DNA of 64,000 bases. Source: Patescibacteria group bacterium (GTDB lineage: Bacteria > Patescibacteriota > Minisyncoccia > Minisyncoccales > Staskawiczbacteraceae). Shown here piece by piece: positions 41,762 to 62,671 of the stretch. Numbering within the stretch: the stretch's first letter is position 1; every line of letters begins with the position of its first letter. The translations under genes were made by a program, and so were the position numbers. The DNA lies in assembly GCA_038065715.1 (NCBI GenBank), contig JBBTQL010000006.1, forward strand, positions 2,127 to 66,126, written 5' to 3'. The notes beneath the pieces are model-generated. The model saw nothing but the letters and a program-made list of their open reading frames with translations, did not search any database and was not told where the DNA came from.

Positions 41762-42235
41762 ATGCTTACAATTCGTTTATCAAGAAAAGGCAAAAAGAAT
41801 CAGCCATTTTTTAGGGTGGTTGTTATAGATAAAAGAAGATCGACAAAAGGAGGAAGGTCGGTTGAAGATTTGGGTTACGTTAATCCTTTAACTAAAAAAA
41901 TATCTTTAAATAAAGAAAGAATTCAGTATTGGCTAAAAACCGGCGCCCAGCCATCGGACACAATTCACAATTTGCTTGTAAAAGAAAAAGTTATAGACGC
42001 AAAAAAAATTCACGTTTCAAAATTAAGCAAAAAAAAGCAAGCAGAAATACTCGCCCGCAATAATGTAGCAGCTTTAGGCGGGGATAAAGAAAATGCAGCT
42101 AAAGTTCAGGCAGCCGCCTCGTCCGCTGACGAGGCGAGCCTCGCCCCCGAAGGGGCGGGAAGCAATCCAGAAGAAGTCGCGAAAGAAGAGTCAAAACCAA
42201 CAGAGGAAGTCGCAGGGGAAGAAGTTAAAGCATAA
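41762..42235 (+). CDS. rpsP: 30S ribosomal protein S16 with a C-terminal extension
   Basis: MLTIRLSRKGKKNQPFFRVVV. Confidence 0.9.
   Translation: MLTIRLSRKGKKNQPFFRVVVIDKRRSTKGGRSVEDLGYVNPLTKKISLNKERIQYWLKTGAQPSDTIHNLLVKEKVIDAKKIHVSKLSKKKQAEILARNNVAALGGDKENAAKVQAAASSADEASLAPEGAGSNPEEVAKEESKPTEEVAGEEVKA
42113..42160. repeat. GC-rich double hairpin in the rpsP C-terminal extension
   Basis: CCTCGTC cgct GACGAGG and CGCCCC cgaa GGGGCG, encoding AASSADEASLAPEGAG. Confidence 0.7.
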
Positions 42236-54166: not shown

Positions 54167-54586
54167 ATGGTAGCAAATTTTAAGAAAAAACAAAAGAACA
54201 GATATTCGGCAAACATTGTTTTTTTTGTTTTCGCCGCGAGCTTGATGCTAACAATAATTCTTTTATTAGTGTTTAAAGATATTGGAATATATAAGAAAAA
54301 AGAAAAACTAAATTCTGAATTTGATAATATAAAAAAACAGATCCAGGAAACAATTAAAAAAAACCAAGAATTAAAACAGGGCATAAGCCAGTCAAATAGT
54401 ATAGATTATTTAGAAAAAGTTGCCAGAGAGCAGTTGAACCTTCAAAAACAGGGAGAAAAAGTTGTGTCCTTCATATTGCCCCAGCAACAGCCAAAAAATG
54501 AAGATAAGCAGCAAAATTTTATGGATATAAAAATTTTTACAGGCTGGTTTAGCAGCGGTTGGGATTGGATAAAAAGCAGATTTTAA
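54167..54586 (+). CDS. Septum formation initiator (FtsB/DivIC-like)
   Basis: N-terminal TM helix, coiled coil, and IDYLEKVAREQLNLQKQGEKVV. Confidence 0.7.
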   Translation: MVANFKKKQKNRYSANIVFFVFAASLMLTIILLLVFKDIGIYKKKEKLNSEFDNIKKQIQETIKKNQELKQGISQSNSIDYLEKVAREQLNLQKQGEKVVSFILPQQQPKNEDKQQNFMDIKIFTGWFSSGWDWIKSRF

Positions 54587-54591
54587 TTTAT

Positions 54592-54626
54592 GCGGGATTA
54601 GTATAGTGGCAGTACATAACCTTCCC
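54592..54626 (+). pseudogene. Orphan 5' half of a tRNA-Gly(CCC)-like gene, broken in the anticodon loop
   Basis: GCGGGAT TA GTAT AGTGGCA GTAC A TAACC TTCCC gives acceptor strand, D-arm, 5' anticodon stem and loop up to CCC. No matching GGTTA, T-arm or ATCCCGC occurs downstream. Confidence 0.45.
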
Positions 54627-54675
54627 CCGCCCCGAAAGGGCGAGGCTCGCCCCGCCGCGGCGGGGCGGCAAGGCA
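54624..54675. repeat. GC-rich hairpin cluster abutting the tRNA half
   Basis: ccccgcccc gaaa gggcgagg, plus the 20-nt perfect palindrome cgccccgccgcggcggggcg (54648-54667). Confidence 0.8.
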
Positions 54676-54702
54676 AGATTTGGATTTCATTTTTTAAAAA
54701 AA

Positions 54703-54960
54703 ATGTTTTCAGTATATATTTTACAAAGTTTAAAGGATAAACGCACTTATGTTGGTTTTAGTGATAATGTTGAAAAGAGGTTGATCAGACATAATCAAGG
54801 ATATATCAATGCAACAAAATATAGGCGTCCTTTCAAGGTTTTATTTACAGAAAAAGCAAGAGACATGCAAGAAGCTAAAAAAAGAGAAAAATATTGGAAA
54901 AGTGGAGCCGGACGGCGGAAATTAAAATATTATTTTGAAAACGGGTTTCCCTGCCCTTAA
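54703..54960 (+). CDS. Small GIY-YIG nuclease family protein (UPF0213/COG2827-like)
   Basis: VYILQS...RTYVGFSDNVEKRLIRHNQG...EAKKREKYWK. The stop codon lies in the hairpin ccctgccc ttaaa gggcgggg (54949-54969). Confidence 0.8.
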   Translation: MFSVYILQSLKDKRTYVGFSDNVEKRLIRHNQGYINATKYRRPFKVLFTEKARDMQEAKKREKYWKSGAGRRKLKYYFENGFPCP

Positions 54961-54977
54961 AGGGCGGGGCAGTAAAG

Positions 54978-56579
54978 TTACAGTATGCGAGTGTGGTTCA
55001 ATGGTAGAATGATTCCTTCCCAAGGAATAGACGGGGGTTCGATTCCCCTCACTCGCTCCGTAATAAAACTTTTTTCTCTTTTCCCGACGAATTCGCGGGC
55101 GGCCAAAACGGCCGCCCATTGCGTTTTGAGAGGGGAATTCGTTTCGCTCGGCGCGCTGCGGCGCGCCTCGCGGTTTTGCAAAATGAGGTTCGAGCCGAAG
55201 ATTTCTTTGGTGGCGACCTTTTTCGCAAAAAGGTCGCTGTCGTTTGCGATTTTATCTATGGATTCCGCTTCCTTTATCCAATTTCTCATCGGTTCGAGCC
55301 AGCCAATTTGCTTTTGTTCAAGATGAGATATTTTCTCCTCCAGCGACTTTTTCTCGGAAAGCAATTTTGCTTTTTCAGTTCGGTAGATTTCTCTTTCAAT
55401 ATCCTGTTCTAAATAACCGTCTAAAAGTCGCTGGAGCTTAACGGAAATTTCCACAATTCTTTTTTTGTTTTCTTGAACAAAAGCGATTAAGGATTGGGCG
55501 GTTTTGGTTTTGTCTTTTTCCAGCATTTTATTCAATTCGTCCGCCCAATCTTTTTTCAAAGAAAATTTTTGAAGCAAAAGCGAAATTTGTTTATTCAAAA
55601 CTTCTTGGCGAATGCAAGGTTCGTTGCATTTTGTAATTTTTGATTTATGAGTACAGTGGTAGTAAGTGTAGTAATGTTGGTTTCCGTTTTTTTGTTTTTT
55701 AACCTTGTATTCGCCGGTTATTGCCATTCCGCAATTTCCGCAACGAAGTAGTCCGCAAAATGCTTGCGGTTCATTCTTTTGTTTGTGGTGAGGTCTGCCT
55801 CTTTGCTTTAAAATTTCCTGAACTCTATCAAAAATTTTCTTTGAAATTATTGGCTGGTGTTTACCTTCGTGTGTTTCGCCAGCATAACGGAATAATCCGA
55901 CATAGAACGGATTGGAAAGGATAAAAGAAATTCTGTCTCGTTTTAATAGTTTTCCGCTTCTCGCGCTAATTCCTTGTTGCGCCAAAAAGTTAGAAATATC
56001 TTCAAGACGAGAATTGTTTTCGGCGTACAATTCAAACATTTTTCGGATTATTGGCGATTTCTTTTTATCTACAACTACATTTTTAATTCTCGGGTCGTTT
56101 AAATATCCTATCGGGGCAAAGCCTGGATATTCGCCTCGTTTAACTTTTTGGCGCAAACCTCGTTTTGTGTTTTCGGAAAGACTGTCAACATAGTATTTGC
56201 TTTGCCCGAAAGCAATATTTAACATAAATTTTCCCTGCGGAGTTGATTCAAACCAGAATGTTGGAAATTTCAGCATCGTTAAATGCCCGCAGTCCAAAAG
56301 ATAAATGATTTTCCCTCCGTCAACAGAATTGCGCGCCAGACGGTCGGGGTGCCACGCCAAAATTCCTTGGGCTTGGCCTTTTTCAATTCGTTTTATCATT
56401 TCGTTAAAAATCGGGCGGCCGGGAATTTTGGCTGATTGTTTTTCAATCAGCTCCTCAAGTATTTCAAGGTTTTCCTGTTTGGCAAAAGCGCGCAATTCTG
56501 CAATTTGGTCCTCAATAGAACGAACTTGTTTGTCCTCAACATCTGTGGATTTGCGGGCATACAAAAAGAATTTTTGCAT
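54978..56579 (-). CDS. Large serine recombinase
   Basis: N-terminal resolvase domain (YARKSTDVEDKQVRSIEDQ, catalytic Ser context; HPDRLARN). Recombinase domain. Zinc ribbon (CGNCG...HC). Coiled coil. The last ~70 codons are encoded by inverted repeat a and by the antisense of tRNA-Gly. Confidence 0.85.
   Translation of the reverse strand: MQKFFLYARKSTDVEDKQVRSIEDQIAELRAFAKQENLEILEELIEKQSAKIPGRPIFNEMIKRIEKGQAQGILAWHPDRLARNSVDGGKIIYLLDCGHLTMLKFPTFWFESTPQGKFMLNIAFGQSKYYVDSLSENTKRGLRQKVKRGEYPGFAPIGYLNDPRIKNVVVDKKKSPIIRKMFELYAENNSRLEDISNFLAQQGISARSGKLLKRDRISFILSNPFYVGLFRYAGETHEGKHQPIISKKIFDRVQEILKQRGRPHHKQKNEPQAFCGLLRCGNCGMAITGEYKVKKQKNGNQHYYTYYHCTHKSKITKCNEPCIRQEVLNKQISLLLQKFSLKKDWADELNKMLEKDKTKTAQSLIAFVQENKKRIVEISVKLQRLLDGYLEQDIEREIYRTEKAKLLSEKKSLEEKISHLEQKQIGWLEPMRNWIKEAESIDKIANDSDLFAKKVATKEIFGSNLILQNREARRSAPSETNSPLKTQWAAVLAAREFVGKREKSFITERVRGIEPPSIPWEGIILPLNHTRIL
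54987..55057 (+). tRNA. tRNA-Gly (anticodon CCC)
   Basis: Manual cloverleaf: GCGAGTG TG GTTC AATGGTA GAAT G ATTCC TTCCCAA GGAAT AGAC GGGGG TTCGATT CCCCT CACTCGC T. Confidence 0.9.
55056..55190 (+). repeat. Inverted repeat a (135 nt), left end of the element
   Basis: Perfect reverse complement of 56794-56928, checked base by base. Confidence 0.95.
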
Positions 56580-56600
56580 AGATTTTTAAACTAAAAGCGA

Positions 56601-56707
56601 CTGGAAGTAATGAGCTAATTGTTGAGGTTAGCCAGTTTCCAGCCGCTTTTAATATTCTATTGTTAGGAATAAAATACTCATTACTGAACTAACTAACCTC
56701 AACAATT
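56601..56707. promoter_or_regulatory. Interleaved inverted repeats upstream of the recombinase start
   Basis: X agtaatgag (56606-14) pairs with ctcattact (56677-85). Y aattgttgaggttag (56617-31) pairs with ctaacctcaacaatt (56693-707). A local hairpin ctggaa...ttccag spans 56601-56642. Confidence 0.4.
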
Positions 56708-56793
56708 TCATTATACCACGCTAAATCCAAAAGCAAAAATTCTTTTTTTCTGGCAAAGAAAAAAACGAGACAGAATTAAAATCGCAACGACGA

Positions 56794-57122
56794 AACCTCA
56801 TTTTGCAAAACCGCGAGGCGCGCCGCAGCGCGCCGAGCGAAACGAATTCCCCTCTCAAAACGCAATGGGCGGCCGTTTTGGCCGCCCGCGAATTCGTCGG
56901 GAAAAGAGAAAAAAGTTTTATTACGGAGTATATTTACAACTACGCTCGAACTTACTTTATCAAAAATTCGTGAGAAAAACAATTGCCCACCCGCCGCAAA
57001 GCGGCGGGCGGGCAGAAAACCCAAAAATCGCTCGGGCGGGGCGGGAAGAAAAAGGGGTGTGGGGAAAATGAATTCCCGCCCCGCCCTCGCTCTCGTCGCA
57101 GGCAAAATTTTTTTAGAGCAGA
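56794..57122 (-). repeat. Internal 329-nt inverted copy of the joined element ends (a' + b')
   Basis: 56794-56928 is the reverse complement of 55056-55190. 56926-57122 is the reverse complement of 60831-61027. Both matches are perfect and overlap at the GAG core. Confidence 0.95.
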
Positions 57123-57797
57123 CTAATCATTCAAAATTTCGTCCATACAAAATTTAGCAAGATCGGCCTTGCTTATTTTTTTGCAAATCGATAAATCCTT
57201 CGTGTTCCACGCTAACAATACGTAGCAATCATCCGCATGAGCTTTATAATTGGTCGACTGAATACAGACGTCTGGGTTCGGATTTGAAACATTTCTGACA
57301 AACGTTAAAAAGCATTGCGCTTTTAGCACGTCATCATATGCATTATTTTGGCAAATTGATATATTATTCAGTTTAGCGGCAAAAAAACCAAAACAATCTC
57401 CTCTTATCCAAGAATCTTTTTCTGAAATATCTAGACACTTTTTAGACGCTTCCCTCAAATCCATACCACTCAATACATAACATTGATTCCGAAAATCTAT
57501 ACCTGTCTTATCGGCAGAAGAACCTCCAATGCTTATAAAATCGCAAGCTTTTGGATTTTTATTATTTATAGCAACATCATTAAAGCAAAGCTCTGGCTTG
57601 GCACACGGGAAACTTTCTTCGCAATGATCTGTTGGTGGAGCTAAATAACACAAAATGGGCACGTTGAGTTTGGTTGCCAATGCGGTTAAATCTTGACGAT
57701 CGTAAAAAGATGCACTGATAAAATGCAAAGCAAAAAGTATAAAGGGGAGAAGGATTATTAATACTAGTATCGATATAGCAATTATTGCTTTTTTCAT
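57123..57797 (-). CDS. Secreted/membrane-anchored protein built of about 5 cysteine-pair repeats
   Basis: N-terminal signal/TM. Recurrent C-x(2)-I-S...C-(Y/F) units (ACDFIS..NQCY, KCLDIS..GDCF, ICQNN..AQCF, VCIQS..DDCY, ICKKIS..KFC). Confidence 0.6.
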   Translation of the reverse strand: MKKAIIAISILVLIILLPFILFALHFISASFYDRQDLTALATKLNVPILCYLAPPTDHCEESFPCAKPELCFNDVAINNKNPKACDFISIGGSSADKTGIDFRNQCYVLSGMDLREASKKCLDISEKDSWIRGDCFGFFAAKLNNISICQNNAYDDVLKAQCFLTFVRNVSNPNPDVCIQSTNYKAHADDCYVLLAWNTKDLSICKKISKADLAKFCMDEILND

Positions 57798-57820
57798 CTT
57801 GGAAGTGTTTTTATTTTATA

Positions 57821-57850
57821 AAATCCGCCCCATGTTTCAGGAGCGGATTT
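57821..57850 (-). terminator. Possible terminator between the two cargo genes
   Basis: AAATCCGC ... GCGGATTT stem. The T-rich tail is weak. Confidence 0.35.
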
Positions 57851-57854
57851 AGGA

Positions 57855-60488
57855 TTATTGTCCAAGCAAAGCTTTAATTTGTTGCATTATCGCTTGCAGA
57901 GCGGATGAAATAGATGCCAAACTGCTCTGTGAAACATTATAACTTGTCGCAGACGAAGCAATGGTGAATGACGAGCTGTTAACTGACACGGATTGTCCAT
58001 TGTAATAATCTTGTATGTTTATGAAATAATTACCGGCAGGTGTAAGTGATGCAGGGATTGTCCATGCATATGAGCCATTATTGGGCACATTGGTCGCAAC
58101 CCAATCGCCTGGATTTGAGCCACTTGCAAATGAAATATCCATAGTCTCGGAACCTGGAAGATTTTGCGAAGTCCATGTGATATTATGTGTTTCTCCGACT
58201 TTCCACGTTTCGCCACCACTCGGTGAAGTAATAATAATCGAAGGTTGGGCGGAATTCGCCGTTACGATATTGAAAGAATTATCACTATAATCCCTTCCTA
58301 TTTCGGTTCCGTTTCTTTGAACCATTACAAAAAGTTTGTATGCATATTGCGGGTTTGCTAACGAACTGGGTATTGTTGCTGAACAACTAATAGAGCTACC
58401 TGATAAATTACTGCAGAGTTGAGCCACCGCCGTTTCATTGGAATAAGCTATGTAAACAAATATTTTGTCTGTAGACAATAAATTAGCAGAACTCCATTTA
58501 AAATTATATGTTGAACCAGCATTAAGTTGCCCCCCGCCATTCGGATCAGTAACAGTGATTGATGGAGGCTGAACAGTTGGCGAACTTATGGTAAAGTAAT
58601 TGTCGCTGGAATCAGTAACTTGTGGAGCGTCCGGACCACTTTTTGAAACATATATCTTAAAATTACTACCGATGTTGTCGGAACTTGGAATAGTCCATGA
58701 ATATGTTCCAGCAGAAGCTGGGATATCATTGCCTACGCCAATATTTTGATAAGGGCCACCTATAAGGCCGATGTCTATATTTTGAGAGCTTAATCCTGTC
58801 GAATTCCATGTAATACTGTGGGTTTCTCCTACTTTCCACGTTTCTCCGCCATTTGGCGAAGTAACTGTAATAGAGGCAGTTGCCTGCGCCGTGGAGATAG
58901 TGAAAGCGTTGCTTAAAATTGTTCCGCTGGAGCCATTGTTTTGATAATCAATAGCGATTTTATATGTTCCAGGGATATAATTTGGATTATTAGGGTCTAT
59001 GAACCACGAATAACTACCCAAATTTGCCGAAACACTGGCTGGATTTCCAGATCCAATAGCATATCCATAGGTTTGTCCATTAGAATATCTTACTAATGTA
59101 AGACTAACTGTACTGTTTTGAGAAAAATTTGTTGTAGTCCAAGTTATGTTGTGCGTTTCTCCAACTTTCCAAGTCTCTCCGCCGTTTGGCGAAGTGACGG
59201 TGATTGATGGAGTATTTGTCTGACAATCACTATTTGTAGAACATGCCTTTCCACCCCCGCCAACAACACACTGATTACTGGAATTACAACTCGTTTGCGC
59301 TGTGGCGATAGTGAAATCGCTGTCGCTATAATCCCGCCCTATTTCCGTTCCATTTCTTTGAACCATTACAAAAAGTTTAAACTGTCTGTTTGGCAACGAT
59401 CCCAATAAGACGGGCACAGTGTCTGAACAAGTAGTAGCATTACCAGCTAAAACACCGCAAATTTGGTAGTTTGAAGCCCCGCCGTTATTTAAATAGACAT
59501 ATATTTTATCTGTAGAAAATAAATTGTTAGAACTCCACCTAAAGGTATATGTTGATCCAGCATTAAGAGTCTCTCCACCACTCGGATAGGTAGCCGTAAT
59601 TGAAGGTGGCTGAACTGTCGGAGAACTTATGGTAAAATAGTTATCGCTAGAATCAGTTACACTTGGAGAAGATGGGCCACTTTTTGAAACATATATTTTA
59701 AAATTACTGCCGACATTGTCCGAAGATGGAATGGTCCAAGAATAAGTTCCGGCAGAAGCTGGAATGTCATTGGCAACGCTAATGTTCTGGTAAGGACCGC
59801 CTATAAGCCCAATGTCTATATTTTGAGAACCCATTCCAGTAGAAGCCCATGTTATATTGTGTGTTTCTCCGACTTTCCAAGTCTCTCCGCCGTTTGGCGA
59901 AGTTACAGTAATGGTTGGCTGTGTCGAACTGCATGTCTGCGTTGACACTGGCTGACCCGTAGTTATTCCACAATTATTGGAATCAGTGCAGGTTCTTGTT
60001 TGCTGACCATTGGAACAGGTTGACCAATTTGTGCAAGTCCAATTTCGGGTACAGGTCGGCGGAGTTACCCCGCATCCATATAAACCATTTAATTTTACTC
60101 TTGTTTTCGGACCAACATAACCACTTAAAGGGGTGATTGAATATTTCTGTTGGAATTGAATAACTGCTGATGCGGTTCCTTCATTATAAATATTTCCTGT
60201 GTCCGGGGAATAAGAAAATCCCTGTTTATCTAAAATTGTATGCAAAGCACCAACTTCGGTGCTTCCTGAATTTGCAAATCCTAAATTAGTATTAAAAGTA
60301 TGACACCAAGCTTGTCCACCTTGTTGCTGAGCAATTAATTGCTGTATTTGTTGCATTAGAGATTGAATTTGTGCCTGCAATTGCGCAATTAATGCTGAAT
60401 TATCTGTGGCTTGTGCACTAACAAAACCAGCAGAACCTAAAATTGCTGTTGCGAGAACAGCTGTTACTAATAAAAATTTAATCTTCAT
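57855..60488 (-). CDS. Large surface protein: signal peptide, Gln-rich coiled coil, peptidoglycan-binding-like domain, repeated Ig-like modules
   Basis: PG_binding_1-like (GALHTILDKQGF...SAVIQFQQKYSI...GYVGPKTRVKL). Four modules starting I(T/I)VTSP(N/S)GGETWKVGETH(N/S)ITW. Two near-duplicate blocks of about 250 aa. Confidence 0.75.
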   Translation of the reverse strand: MKIKFLLVTAVLATAILGSAGFVSAQATDNSALIAQLQAQIQSLMQQIQQLIAQQQGGQAWCHTFNTNLGFANSGSTEVGALHTILDKQGFSYSPDTGNIYNEGTASAVIQFQQKYSITPLSGYVGPKTRVKLNGLYGCGVTPPTCTRNWTCTNWSTCSNGQQTRTCTDSNNCGITTGQPVSTQTCSSTQPTITVTSPNGGETWKVGETHNITWASTGMGSQNIDIGLIGGPYQNISVANDIPASAGTYSWTIPSSDNVGSNFKIYVSKSGPSSPSVTDSSDNYFTISSPTVQPPSITATYPSGGETLNAGSTYTFRWSSNNLFSTDKIYVYLNNGGASNYQICGVLAGNATTCSDTVPVLLGSLPNRQFKLFVMVQRNGTEIGRDYSDSDFTIATAQTSCNSSNQCVVGGGGKACSTNSDCQTNTPSITVTSPNGGETWKVGETHNITWTTTNFSQNSTVSLTLVRYSNGQTYGYAIGSGNPASVSANLGSYSWFIDPNNPNYIPGTYKIAIDYQNNGSSGTILSNAFTISTAQATASITVTSPNGGETWKVGETHSITWNSTGLSSQNIDIGLIGGPYQNIGVGNDIPASAGTYSWTIPSSDNIGSNFKIYVSKSGPDAPQVTDSSDNYFTISSPTVQPPSITVTDPNGGGQLNAGSTYNFKWSSANLLSTDKIFVYIAYSNETAVAQLCSNLSGSSISCSATIPSSLANPQYAYKLFVMVQRNGTEIGRDYSDNSFNIVTANSAQPSIIITSPSGGETWKVGETHNITWTSQNLPGSETMDISFASGSNPGDWVATNVPNNGSYAWTIPASLTPAGNYFINIQDYYNGQSVSVNSSSFTIASSATSYNVSQSSLASISSALQAIMQQIKALLGQ

Positions 60489-60682
60489 ATTTTTTTACCT
60501 AAATAAATTCGCAAAGTTTAGCCACTGCTGGCGAGACTACAAATTTAAAAAAGCAATTTTAAATTATTTAATTATATAACTTGCTCTAAAATTGTACAAC
60601 TTATGCACTTGCCTGTGGCGTAGAAACACAAAGCCCGCCGCTAGACCGAGACTTGCACCTCCCATACCCTTTCGGATATAGA

Positions 60683-60734
60683 CCACGAACATGGAGTCTG
60701 AACGACGGGTTCAGTATGTTCGTGGAATTTTTTT
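60683..60734. other. Long hairpin (10-bp outer and 6-bp inner stems) with a T-run on the + strand, inside the cargo-gene leader
   Basis: ccacgaacat ... ctgaac gacgg gttcag ... atgttcgtgg aattttttt. Confidence 0.5.
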
Positions 60735-60830
60735 GCCATGCTCAAAAATTTTAATTCTTGAGTTTAGGCAGTCAATATTTAATTGTTAAATTATTATACC
60801 AAAGAAAATAAGAAAGGTGAAGTGAGCAAA

Positions 60831-61027
60831 TCTGCTCTAAAAAAATTTTGCCTGCGACGAGAGCGAGGGCGGGGCGGGAATTCATTTTCCCCACACCCCT
60901 TTTTCTTCCCGCCCCGCCCGAGCGATTTTTGGGTTTTCTGCCCGCCCGCCGCTTTGCGGCGGGTGGGCAATTGTTTTTCTCACGAATTTTTGATAAAGTA
61001 AGTTCGAGCGTAGTTGTAAATATACTC
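60831..61027 (+). repeat. Inverted repeat b (197 nt), right end of the element
   Basis: Perfect reverse complement of 56926-57122, checked block by block. Contains the 13-bp stem gggcggggcggga/tcccgccccgccc and a second long GC hairpin. Confidence 0.95.
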
Positions 61028-61557: not shown

Positions 61558-62671
61558 ATGACAGATTTAACTCCGCAAATAAAAGAGCTTCAAGAAAAAC
61601 TCCAGCATTTGGGAGACTGCCTTTGACGTTGAGCAAAAAGAAAAAGAAATAAAAGAGTTTGAAAAAGAAATGCAACTGCCTGGCTTTTGGAATGATAACG
61701 AAAAAGCAAAAAACATAAGCCAAAAAGTTTCTGTCCTAAAAGAGGATATTGAAAACAACGAATTGCTAAAAAAAGAATTGGCCGATTTAGTTGAGTTTAA
61801 TAGTTTAACGAAAGAAGACGAAAGTTTATCAGAAAACTTGGAAGACAAATTTTTGCAGCTTAAAATAAAAATAGAAAAAGAAGAGATAAAAACATTCTTG
61901 TCTGGAAAGTACGATAAAAATAATGCCATATTGGAAATATATTCTGGGGCAGGAGGCCAAGATTCGCAAGATTGGGCAACAATGCTGTTGCGCATGTATC
62001 AAAGATATTGCGCGACAAAAGGTTTTGAAACAGAAATTTTACATCAGTCATTTGGCGAATCTGGAGGGCCTGAAGGAAGAATTGGCACTAAAGCTGTAAC
62101 GCTGGAAATAAAAGGTAATTACGCTTTTGGTTTTTTGAAAAAAGAAACAGGAGTGCATAGATTAGTAAGGCAATCGCCTTTTTCAGCTCAAAAATTAAGG
62201 CACACTTCTTTTGCATTAATAGAGGTAATGCCAGAATTAAAAAAAGAAGAATCAGATATAGAAATAAAGCCAGAAGATTTGAAAATTGATACATTTAAGG
62301 CTTCGGGGCCCGGAGGGCAATATGTAAACAAAACAGAATCAGCAATAAGGCTGACCCATATAAAAACCGGCATAGCAGTTTCTTCGCAGTCAGAAAGATC
62401 TCAGGGAAAAAACAGGGAGAACGCAATGAAAATTTTGTATGCCAAGCTTTACCAGTTGAGAGAATCAGAAAAATCAAAAGAAATAAAAGAAATAAAGGGC
62501 GACAGGGTTTCAGCTCGCTTTGGGAATCAAATAAGGTCTTATGTATTGCATCCTTACAAAATGGTAAAAGATTTAAGGACTCAATATGAAACATCGGATG
62601 CAGAGGGGGTTTTAAACGGAAAGCTTGAAGAATTTATAGAGTCAGAAATTAAAGACAAAGAAATAAAATGA
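61558..62671 (+). CDS. prfB: Peptide chain release factor 2, with programmed +1 frameshift at 61621-61627
   Basis: Frame 0 gives MTDLTPQIKELQEKLQHLGDCL, then CTT TGA C with GGGAG upstream. The +1 frame continues DVEQKEKE... into the 61670 ORF. SPF and GGQ motifs are present (QSPFSAQ; SGPGGQYVNK). Confidence 0.9.

Follow-up and report, generated by a model that had tools for sequence, protein, structure and literature searches.

The window analysed here, by which we mean the whole 64,000-nucleotide (nt) stretch of contig JBBTQL010000006.1 (GCA_038065715.1) from a Patescibacteria group bacterium, contains a small GIY-YIG nuclease gene lodged between a broken and an intact tRNA-Gly(CCC) gene. 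The gene order common to relatives at this locus is gatC - gatA - a gene for a 180-aa protein - divIC - tRNA-Gly(CCC) - tRNA-Thr(CGT) - a small open reading frame (ORF) - prfB - ftsE - ftsX. In the window, the position of tRNA-Gly(CCC) is occupied by an orphan tRNA 5′ half, a GC-rich double-hairpin module, a short leader, the nuclease gene and a complete tRNA-Gly(CCC) of a different allele, and a serine-recombinase element lies between the latter and tRNA-Thr(CGT). Module, leader and nuclease gene are hereafter called the cassette.

Anatomy of the locus

The plus-strand sequence at 54592–54626 (GCGGGATTAGTATAGTGGCAGTACATAACCTTCCC) spans tRNA nucleotides 1–36, that is, the acceptor strand, the D-arm, the 5′ anticodon stem and the anticodon loop through CCC, and it breaks off right after C36, 3′ of the anticodon. 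The first-pass annotation had read it as the 5′ half of a tRNA gene ending at CCC, and comparison with relatives, which were collected via the upstream DivIC protein, bears this out. In the nearest relative found (L005, NCBI GCA_041643095.1; DivIC 78% identical), an intact tRNA-Gly(CCC) called by ARAGORN (GCGGGATTAGTATAGTGGCAGTACATAACCTTCCCAAGGTTAGGGTGCCGGTTCGATTCCGGTATCCCGCT) lies directly after divIC, in the syntenic position, and its first 35 nt are identical to the orphan at 35/35 positions. This identity argues against a chance resemblance and marks the orphan as a true remnant of the resident tRNA gene. Being a gene fragment, it lacks the complete cloverleaf of a functional tRNA gene, and neither ARAGORN nor Rfam RF00005 called it a tRNA in context, including in a scan of 54400–55300 at E ≤ 10; the 43-nt stretch 54588–54630, scanned alone, received no Rfam tRNA score even at E ≤ 10. 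Formally this outcome goes against the first-pass annotation, which had proposed scoring by a covariance model as its check and the lack of a tRNA-like score as grounds for refutation. The comparison with relatives tests the orphan's origin more strongly than the tRNA detectors do and is decisive. As the first-pass annotation had also stated, a 3′ half matching the orphan (L005 type) was found on neither strand of the 64-kb window, and the window likewise contained no separate 3′-half gene with a complementary leader of the kind a split tRNA would have. The junction between orphan and hairpins is present in three independent assemblies from Hainich groundwater metagenomes (ERZ1292632, ERZ1292635 and ERZ1292638), so it is not an assembly artefact. 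The comparison thus identifies 54592–54626 as the surviving 5′ half of the tRNA-Gly(CCC) gene whose native place, in this lineage of the candidate phyla radiation (CPR), is behind divIC.

The orphan is directly followed by the double-hairpin module (54627–54669, plus strand), correctly recognised at first pass as a GC-rich hairpin cluster; it is 43 nt long with 88% GC, against 35.6% for the window. Hairpin 1 (CGCCC-CGAAA-GGGCG) is connected by AGG to hairpin 2 (CTCGCCCCGCC-GC-GGCGGGGCGG), and the core of the module is an 11-bp palindrome, GCGAG-G-CTCGC, at 54640–54650. This core (GCGAGGCTCGC) has six matches in the window at ≤1 mismatch, where 0.23 would be expected by chance, and the full module is present in two copies. 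In other genomes, the exact 10-mer GCGAGGCTCG lies beside GIY-YIG homologues at 7/7 genome-collection loci (L011–L017), and the 8-mer GAGGCTCG occurs within a few hundred bases of the gene at 22 of the 24 metagenome loci with ≥55% identity. Rfam scans at the gathering threshold, and at E ≤ 10 on 54400–55300, matched the module to no known family. About 24 distinct copies retain both hairpins although their inner stems are wholly changed, always with full compensation; the constant parts are the CGC/GCG closure of hairpin 1, the AGG linker and the CTCGC/GCGG closure of hairpin 2. These compensatory changes, a purely comparative line of support, point to a module that is conserved as a structure.

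A remnant of a second module, hairpin 1 only (CCCTGCCCT-TAA-AGGGCGGGG), is located at 54949–54969 on the plus strand and belongs to direct-repeat family D5. It overlaps the stop codon of the nuclease ORF and is preceded by GGGTTT, which resembles the T-arm and forms part of Gly-Phe-Pro codons; at loci with the intact tRNA upstream of the gene, the equivalent region has an ORF ending in ..GGGTTC, then a full module, then a tRNA 3′ fragment. Elsewhere in the window, at 42113–42158, we observed a complete solitary module (CCGCCCC..GGGGCGAGGCTCGCC..GGCGGC) in minus-strand sense with TTC on its 5′ flank. It sits in frame within the C-terminal extension of a 157-aa ORF (41762–42235), which we take from its N-terminal sequence to be ribosomal protein S16 (rpsP). 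This solitary copy suggests that the module can move or persist without the nuclease gene.

The leader (54670–54702, plus strand) consists of AAGG and a degenerate remnant of a tRNA 3′ half that is borne by the cassette rather than derived from the orphan. Its sequence (AAGGCAAGAT..) is common to the window, L011/L028 and L043, the orphans of L011/L028 and L043 being of a different tRNA type, and the equivalent stretch in L026 still reads AAGGTTA..TTCGAAT.

The gene at 54703–54960 (plus strand) encodes a minimal GIY-YIG nuclease of 85 aa, which matches Pfam PF01541 over residues 2–71 (E = 3e-15; 56.7 bits, cut-off 22.6); GIY-YIG is the only domain found in it. Its best solved relatives, at modest E-values, are the UPF0213 proteins 1ywl (3.7e-4) and 1zg2 (1.3e-3) and the SLX1 structure 7wme (0.11), and its score of 17.1 bits against TIGR01453 (group I intron endonuclease) is below the cut-off of 56. 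On these comparisons, the protein belongs to a minimal UPF0213/Slx1-like branch and not to the SegB/I-TevI type. Across 19 homologues (35–89% identity), Y5, Y16, G18, R26 and H30 are invariant and E62 is nearly so; we take Y5, Y16, R26, H30 and E62 to be the catalytic residues on the basis of I-TevI numbering. The homologues range in size from 60 to 215 aa. The nuclease is under strong purifying selection, with dN/dS values of 0.04–0.14 between cassette genes. Scanning for promoters and terminators gave no useful signal, with 4 promoter-like sites where 2.9 would be expected.

The complete tRNA-Gly(CCC) downstream of the gene (54987–55059, plus strand) was called by ARAGORN and scored 69.3 bits with Rfam. 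Its acceptor stem (GCGAGTG/CACTCGC) is that of another allele: it shares 23/35 positions with the orphan, and its best match among the sampled tRNAs covers 60/71 positions. The succession of a GIY-YIG gene and an intact tRNA-Gly(CCC) of different sequence, not a repaired chimera, had been described at first pass, and the mutual pairing of the tRNA's stems agrees with it. This tRNA is the working copy and supplies the function. The GIY-YIG ORF is the only one between orphan and intact tRNA, and no recombinase lies within this interval.

Two simpler derivations of the intact tRNA were rejected. Duplication of a long target site, the pattern seen in L011 with its orphan identical to the 5′ half of its intact tRNA, does not account for the 12/35 positions at which the window halves differ. 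A restored chimera of a cassette 5′ half and the resident 3′ half would require stems compatible with an L005-type 3′ half, whereas those of the intact tRNA pair perfectly with each other and not with that half. Because the stems are self-consistent and of the other allele, the whole tRNA appears to have been replaced, not half of it.

The cassette at the divIC locus of relatives

Our search for GIY-YIG homologues yielded 14 loci from the genome collection and 35 from the metagenome collection; these 49 loci include near-duplicates and represent about 30 distinct arrangements. The eight closest (about six distinct: L011/L028, L025, L026/L027, L029/L030, L031, L043 and L056) come from Patescibacteria genomes and are all located at divIC - tRNA-Gly(CCC), and their proteins are 75–89% identical to that of the window, with the exception of L056 (67% over 30 residues). 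They share one architecture, which comprises a 5′ half ending in CCTTCCC, a two-hairpin module with GCGAGGCTCG, AAGG plus a decayed 3′ half, the ORF and, 3–14 nt after it, an intact tRNA-Gly(CCC). The junction ..CCTTCCC/CCGC..module..GGCGGC/AAGG.. (slashes mark the joins) recurs in all eight. The cassette is made up of the double-hairpin module with its palindromic core, the decayed tRNA-3′-half leader and the 85-aa GIY-YIG gene, and the constant position of the junction after the anticodon reads as the signature of repeated site-specific insertion.

The two sides of the junction appear to have different histories. The leader lineage AAGGCAAGAT is joined to a T1-type (L005-type) half in the window and to a T3-type (L009/L011-type) half in L011 and L043, and the leader AAGGTTAGAA, shared by L029 and L056, is likewise joined to different 5′ halves; in L056 the GGTTA of the leader cannot pair with the anticodon stem ATTCC of its orphan. 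Since one cassette lineage is found on different 5′ halves, the sequence to the left of the junction is host-derived and that to the right cassette-derived. Wherever a relative allows this to be checked, the orphan half is of the host's own type. The first-pass proposal that an insertion destroyed an older tRNA-Gly gains support from the uninterrupted gene in L005 and from the same junction in the eight loci, and its placement of the GIY-YIG gene within the insert also stands.

In the DivIC clade of the window (L005, 78% identity; L007, 55%; L008, 50%; L009, 47%), only the window carries the cassette, whereas in a second clade, whose members are 45–58% identical to each other, it is present at 6/6 loci. 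The window nuclease gene is 86% identical to that of L011 at the nucleotide level, and no two genes of the second clade are closer to each other than this. From this distribution, the window lineage most likely acquired the cassette horizontally, and not recently among the sampled genomes. Recent horizontal transfer, which had been considered in view of 87–89% protein identity against 31–37% DivIC identity, was weakened as a candidate when the dN/dS analysis showed saturated synonymous sites.

The tRNA-Gly(CCC) alleles themselves are distributed across host lineages. The L056 orphan matches the intact tRNA of L039 at 35/36 positions. Between L008 and L026 the intact tRNAs agree at 67/71, yet the DivIC proteins of these two are only 31% identical. 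Each tRNA-Gly(CCC) type is an orphan in some genomes and a working copy in others, a pattern that, judged across the sampled loci, looks like serial allele replacement.

Several irregular arrangements were also observed at this locus. L008 (10436–10507) has no nuclease gene and contains an intact tRNA-Gly(CCC), two GC hairpins and an orphan 3′ fragment (CGATTCCCGTTACCCGCTCA) of the L009-type allele; it looks like a derivative with the tRNA upstream and the gene lost. In L029/L030 (1045–1116), the orphan half carries an additional long hairpin in its D-loop. L030 further contains, at 1525–1747, tandemly repeated units that combine part of a 5′ half, the module and the intact tRNA's 3′ half and run to the contig end; one unit is called by ARAGORN as an 84-nt “tRNA-Arg(ccg)”, and this array may be a real amplification or an assembly loop. 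In the cassette-free L007 (1573–1646; also L006), the tRNA-Gly(CCC) has an A4.C69 mismatch in its acceptor stem (GCGAGTA/TACCCGC), which fits the appearance of a two-allele chimera, and a GGCGAGCCTG.. stretch lies just upstream.

A wider family nested in tRNA genes

The cassette is a member of a large family of tRNA-nested cassettes, which the first-pass annotation had missed. A same-strand tRNA gene lies beside the homologue at 44/49 loci, and two more loci have a tRNA fragment only. The 49 loci come from Patescibacteria, Planctomycetota, Bacteroidota, Ignavibacteria, Verrucomicrobia and soil metagenomes, and thus represent at least five phyla. Most contain an exact partial copy, 11 to >30 nt long, of the adjoining tRNA. 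The cassettes measure 0.3–0.45 kb, and their breakpoints fall at loop-coding positions, namely the anticodon loop, the T-loop after C56 and the D-arm. The usual outcome is one intact tRNA plus a partial copy, with one or more hairpins at the broken end.

The more frequent of the two polarities has an intact tRNA (Gly-TCC, Gly-GCC, Arg, Leu, Met, Ser, Asn or Pro) whose end lies 0–110 nt before the start codon of the nuclease gene. The ORF then ends in ..GGG TTC CCn (Gly-Phe-Pro), a stretch that doubles as T-stem and TTC of another, incomplete copy of the tRNA; the module follows directly after C56 and is succeeded by the remaining T-loop and the 3′ end as an exact repeat of 17–24 nt. The members from Bacteroidota, Ignavibacteria and Verrucomicrobia (36–45% identity) are without the GAGGCTCG core; GC hairpins are nevertheless present in them, as are partial tRNA copies, 21 to >30 nt long and beginning near the anticodon. 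The polarity of the window is also found in L018/L045, at a tRNA-Glu with the breakpoint in the D-arm. In L039, a foreign tRNA-Gly, the GIY-YIG gene and the module lie between the two pieces of the resident tRNA-Gly.

A related family member provides a clean presence/absence polymorphism. The soil contigs L048 and L052 are identical at 312/320 flanking positions, and L052 carries a precise 332-nt insertion after G34 of tRNA-Asn(GTT), consisting of a tRNA 3′ half, another 11 nt, a GIY-YIG paralogue plus a GC hairpin. In L052–L055 and L059 (786–1476), tRNA-Asn(GTT) is succeeded by two different GIY-YIG paralogues in a tandem arrangement, and behind each of them come a GC hairpin and an incomplete copy of tRNA-Asn, whereas L048–L051 contain the second paralogue only.

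At E ≤ 1e-3 the family comprises 4136 cluster representatives, small proteins throughout. Many of them (P0020–P0169) show 20–60 surplus N-terminal residues before the conserved MFSVYILQ start; these are probably a systematic annotation artefact, with gene calls that begin inside the upstream tRNA gene. In the phage collection we found ten weak matches (36% identity, Rhizobium phages), 0/10 of them beside a tRNA. As they lie away from tRNAs, a phage origin is unsupported.

Readings of the locus and their significance

We consider it likely that a mobile, tRNA-targeting selfish cassette split the resident tRNA-Gly(CCC) gene and that a different tRNA-Gly now does its work. This reading is built on the origin of the orphan, the fixed junction, the recurrence of the cassette, the family-wide nesting in tRNA genes, the polymorphism in a relative and the purifying selection on the nuclease gene; the activity of the nuclease, its target and the repair route are what we infer. 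The nuclease, probably structure- rather than sequence-specific, would cut the tRNA gene where the DNA can extrude a hairpin loop. Slx1-type enzymes are structure-specific, and since unrelated tRNAs are broken in the anticodon loop, the T-loop or the D-arm, cutting at extruded hairpin loops accounts for the breakpoints better than sequence recognition. The break would be repaired, in a homing-like manner, by copying the cassette from a cassette-bearing allele, with the left crossover in the tRNA 5′ half or anticodon and the right crossover in or beyond the neighbouring tRNA. The module would fill the cut site, so that the orphan is no longer cut or recombined, and the linked intact tRNA would rescue the cell, a natural “cleave and rescue” arrangement.

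Several points weigh against this account. The empty site comes from a relative with only 78% DivIC identity, and the region downstream differs in L005. The census of 49 loci is biased, as all were found with peptide patterns of this one protein. Synonymous sites are saturated between the sampled cassettes (dS > 1), the sample is without a recent donor, and the second clade may have passed the cassette on by long vertical descent. The intact tRNAs beside closely related cassettes differ greatly, so that the arrival of the rescue tRNA with the insert, as the first-pass annotation had proposed, is no more than a possibility. The folding energies of the module are no better than those of shuffled sequences (z = -1.5 for 54592–54705 as RNA and -1.4 for 54620–54680 as DNA), which is why compensatory changes were used as the argument for structure. 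The 85-aa protein is without a DNA-binding domain, falls in a branch usually regarded as housekeeping repair nucleases, and its role as a nuclease is a prediction. Finally, the intact tRNA has the same anticodon loop as the orphan, and simple sequence-specific cutting would hit the rescue copy too.

With less assurance, and as a tentative proposal that we hold at a little short of even, at least a large subfamily of the minimal UPF0213/Slx1-like proteins, which in bacteria form thousands of clusters and carry annotations as nucleases with a repair function or none assigned, may be the engine of undescribed ultra-small selfish elements. These would break tRNA genes at loop-coding positions while a linked intact or restored tRNA rescues the host (a “cleave and rescue” drive), with serial replacement of tRNA-Gly(CCC) alleles at the CPR divIC locus.

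The best-surviving alternative, which we nevertheless regard as unlikely, is a domesticated and immobile arrangement in which an old tandem duplication of tRNA-Gly(CCC) left one decayed copy, the GIY-YIG gene is a host gene riding on the tRNA promoters, and the hairpins are signals for RNA processing, stabilisation or termination. The saturated synonymous sites and strong purifying selection would fit such a resident gene, as would the occurrence of the cassette in all six members of one DivIC clade, the lack of an outstanding promoter for the gene and its tRNA orientation at every locus. A decayed duplicate does not explain, however, why the orphan is identical to a relative's working tRNA whereas the sequence right of the junction is decayed and cassette-specific. 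Nor does immobility agree with the presence of one cassette lineage on different 5′ halves, the window as sole carrier in its clade, the insertion polymorphism between the near-identical genomes L048 and L052, or the occurrence of tandem arrays and of modules on their own, in one case within a protein-coding gene.

A second alternative involves the large-serine-recombinase element that follows the intact tRNA-Gly (55056–61027), recognised by its inverted repeats, attachment-site (att) cores and domains. It lies between the 3′ end of this tRNA and tRNA-Thr(CGT), which in relatives follow each other directly with no element between. The recombinase gene (minus strand, about 55104–56579) encodes Resolvase, Recombinase and Zn_ribbon_recom domains. 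The left site attL reads ..CACTCG CTC CGTAAT.. with the core CTC at 55056–55058, and attR, 11 nt before tRNA-Thr, reads ..AATATA CTC ACGAAT... A related recombinase (82% amino acid identity) occupies the same site in L026/L027. The intact tRNA is thus the integration site of the recombinase element and a hotspot, in line with the first-pass annotation. Perfect (100%) inverted repeats pair 55056–55190 with 56794–56928 and 56926–57122 with 60831–61027, with an internal inverted attP-like junction at 56926–56928; they could represent two invertible segments or an assembly effect, and the Hainich contigs break at this repeat.

On this alternative, the tRNA fragments would be att remnants of tyrosine- or serine-recombinase elements, and the cassette either a remnant of such an element or an att-flanked unit without its own integrase that is mobilised in trans. 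Within tRNA genes, integrases prefer the 3′ end and the anticodon and T-loops, and partial copies stay behind, according to passages of PMC9897764 that cite Williams 2002 and Reiter 1989. Both cassette polarities could also fit Campbell-type integration of a circle with a truncated tRNA segment, and in L026/L027 as in the window, the intact tRNA borders directly on a serine-recombinase element. We nonetheless judge this explanation improbable, marginally more so than domestication. The junctions of the recombinase element itself lie at the 3′ end of the intact tRNA and not at the anticodon, and the interval from intact tRNA to partial copy has room for the GIY-YIG gene only, at about 45 loci in five phyla. 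A match to the window recombinase was found in L026/L027 only, and L011, L025 and L031, with 0.2–1.1 kb available beyond the intact tRNA, had none; in L029, L030 and L043 the downstream DNA is too short to judge.

A degenerate group I intron with a homing endonuclease gene, or a split or intron-containing tRNA still using the 5′ half, is very improbable: although the 5′ halves look pristine in all eight loci and Nanoarchaeum is known to have split tRNA halves with GC-rich sequence after them, 54400–55300 has no Intron_gpI match at E ≤ 10, an intron core would not fit into the sequence outside the ORF (about 76 nt 5′ and 26 nt 3′), the last nucleotide of the 5′ exon would be C and not U, the 64-kb window contains no 3′ half, the complete tRNA-Gly(CCC) 360 nt away makes a split gene unnecessary, and the archaeal splicing endonuclease is not known from bacteria. 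In favour of the intron version, a passage in PMC3984707 describes bacterial group I introns in tRNA anticodon loops that can carry GIY-YIG genes.

Two further features were observed in this part of the window. Within the recombinase element, a LOOT RNA (Rfam RF03000, 73.6 bits) is located at 60648–60770 on the minus strand and adjoins genes for an 877-aa repeat-rich surface protein (57855–60488) and a 224-aa protein. Downstream, the programmed +1 frameshift site that is typical of prfB is present at 61621 (CTT TGA C); the upstream short frame of the gene ends ..LGDCL*, and the main ORF (61670–62671) continues in the +1 frame.

Returning to the reading of a mobile cassette, the parallel drawn at first pass was to SegB, a GIY-YIG homing endonuclease whose gene lies in the tRNA gene cluster of phage T4, as passages of PMC2330249 and PMC13096335 describe. 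It holds as a functional analogy: both are intron-independent GIY-YIG genes in the company of tRNA genes, both would be expected to be inherited with co-conversion of the tRNA genes at their flanks, and SegB cutting can drive duplication of the tRNA region. It does not hold for protein type. SegB combines the catalytic domain with DNA-binding modules and the window protein is an 85-aa catalytic domain alone, with UPF0213/SLX1 as its nearest relatives; a C-terminal DNA-binding region (about 200–250 aa in total) and membership in the homing-endonuclease cluster, which characterise Seg and I-TevI enzymes, are both lacking in it. On site-specific cutting of an allele without the element, and on its favoured inheritance, the fixed junction, the patchy distribution and the insertion polymorphism in a related member bear only indirectly. 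The window cassette is, furthermore, chromosomal in bacteria, inside a broken tRNA gene, and accompanied by a hairpin module.

The integrative elements that target tRNA genes, as outlined in passages of PMC9897764 citing Williams 2002 and Reiter 1989, resemble the cassette in the pairing of an intact tRNA with a partial copy, in anticodon-loop and T-loop breakpoints and in the preservation of tRNA function. They differ from it in that the cassette has no integrase and only 0.3–0.45 kb with a single nuclease gene, and in that the window fragment is the 5′ half of a different allele and not a repeat of the intact tRNA. In our literature search, small nuclease-only GIY-YIG cassettes nested in tRNA genes were not found described; the closest report concerns non-intron insertions encoding GIY-YIG proteins at stem-loops of CPR rRNA genes (PMC11270868). 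These insertions occur in the same bacterial group and likewise place a GIY-YIG ORF in a stable-RNA gene as neither a group I nor a group II intron. In contrast to the cassette they lie in rRNA genes, tRNA is not mentioned, and no hairpin module or duplicated target is reported.

The stand-alone Slx1-like/UPF0213 family has been described as vertically inherited and repair-related (PMC1564403). Its solved members 1ywl and 1zg2 have the size and domain content of the window protein, which falls within the single-domain range of about 85–110 aa, whereas the genes of the window family behave as mobile tRNA-nested cassettes. Repetitive extragenic palindromic (REP) sequences with their RAYT transposases, and repeats of the miniature inverted-repeat transposable element (MITE) type, share with the module short GC-rich palindromic units of conserved sequence, compensatory stems and solitary copies away from the enzyme gene. 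They differ from the cassette, whose enzyme is a GIY-YIG nuclease and not a Y1 transposase, whose copy number is low and whose sites are tRNA loop positions.

If the reading of a mobile cassette is true, it would provide a biological role for a very large family of small GIY-YIG proteins that is now without one, and a nuclease-only element of about 0.35 kb would join the few kinds of mobile DNA with tRNA genes as their target. The same reading would account for orphan tRNA halves and odd “tRNA-like” calls in the genomes of CPR and other bacteria, and would represent a natural example of the cleave-and-rescue logic of synthetic gene drives. As a possible tool, the nuclease would be of interest should it recognise hairpin loops in DNA and not sequence, as it might. 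More broadly, the finding suggests that selfish DNA can turn over single-copy tRNA genes in streamlined genomes, which bears on tRNA-based phylogeny and on annotation.

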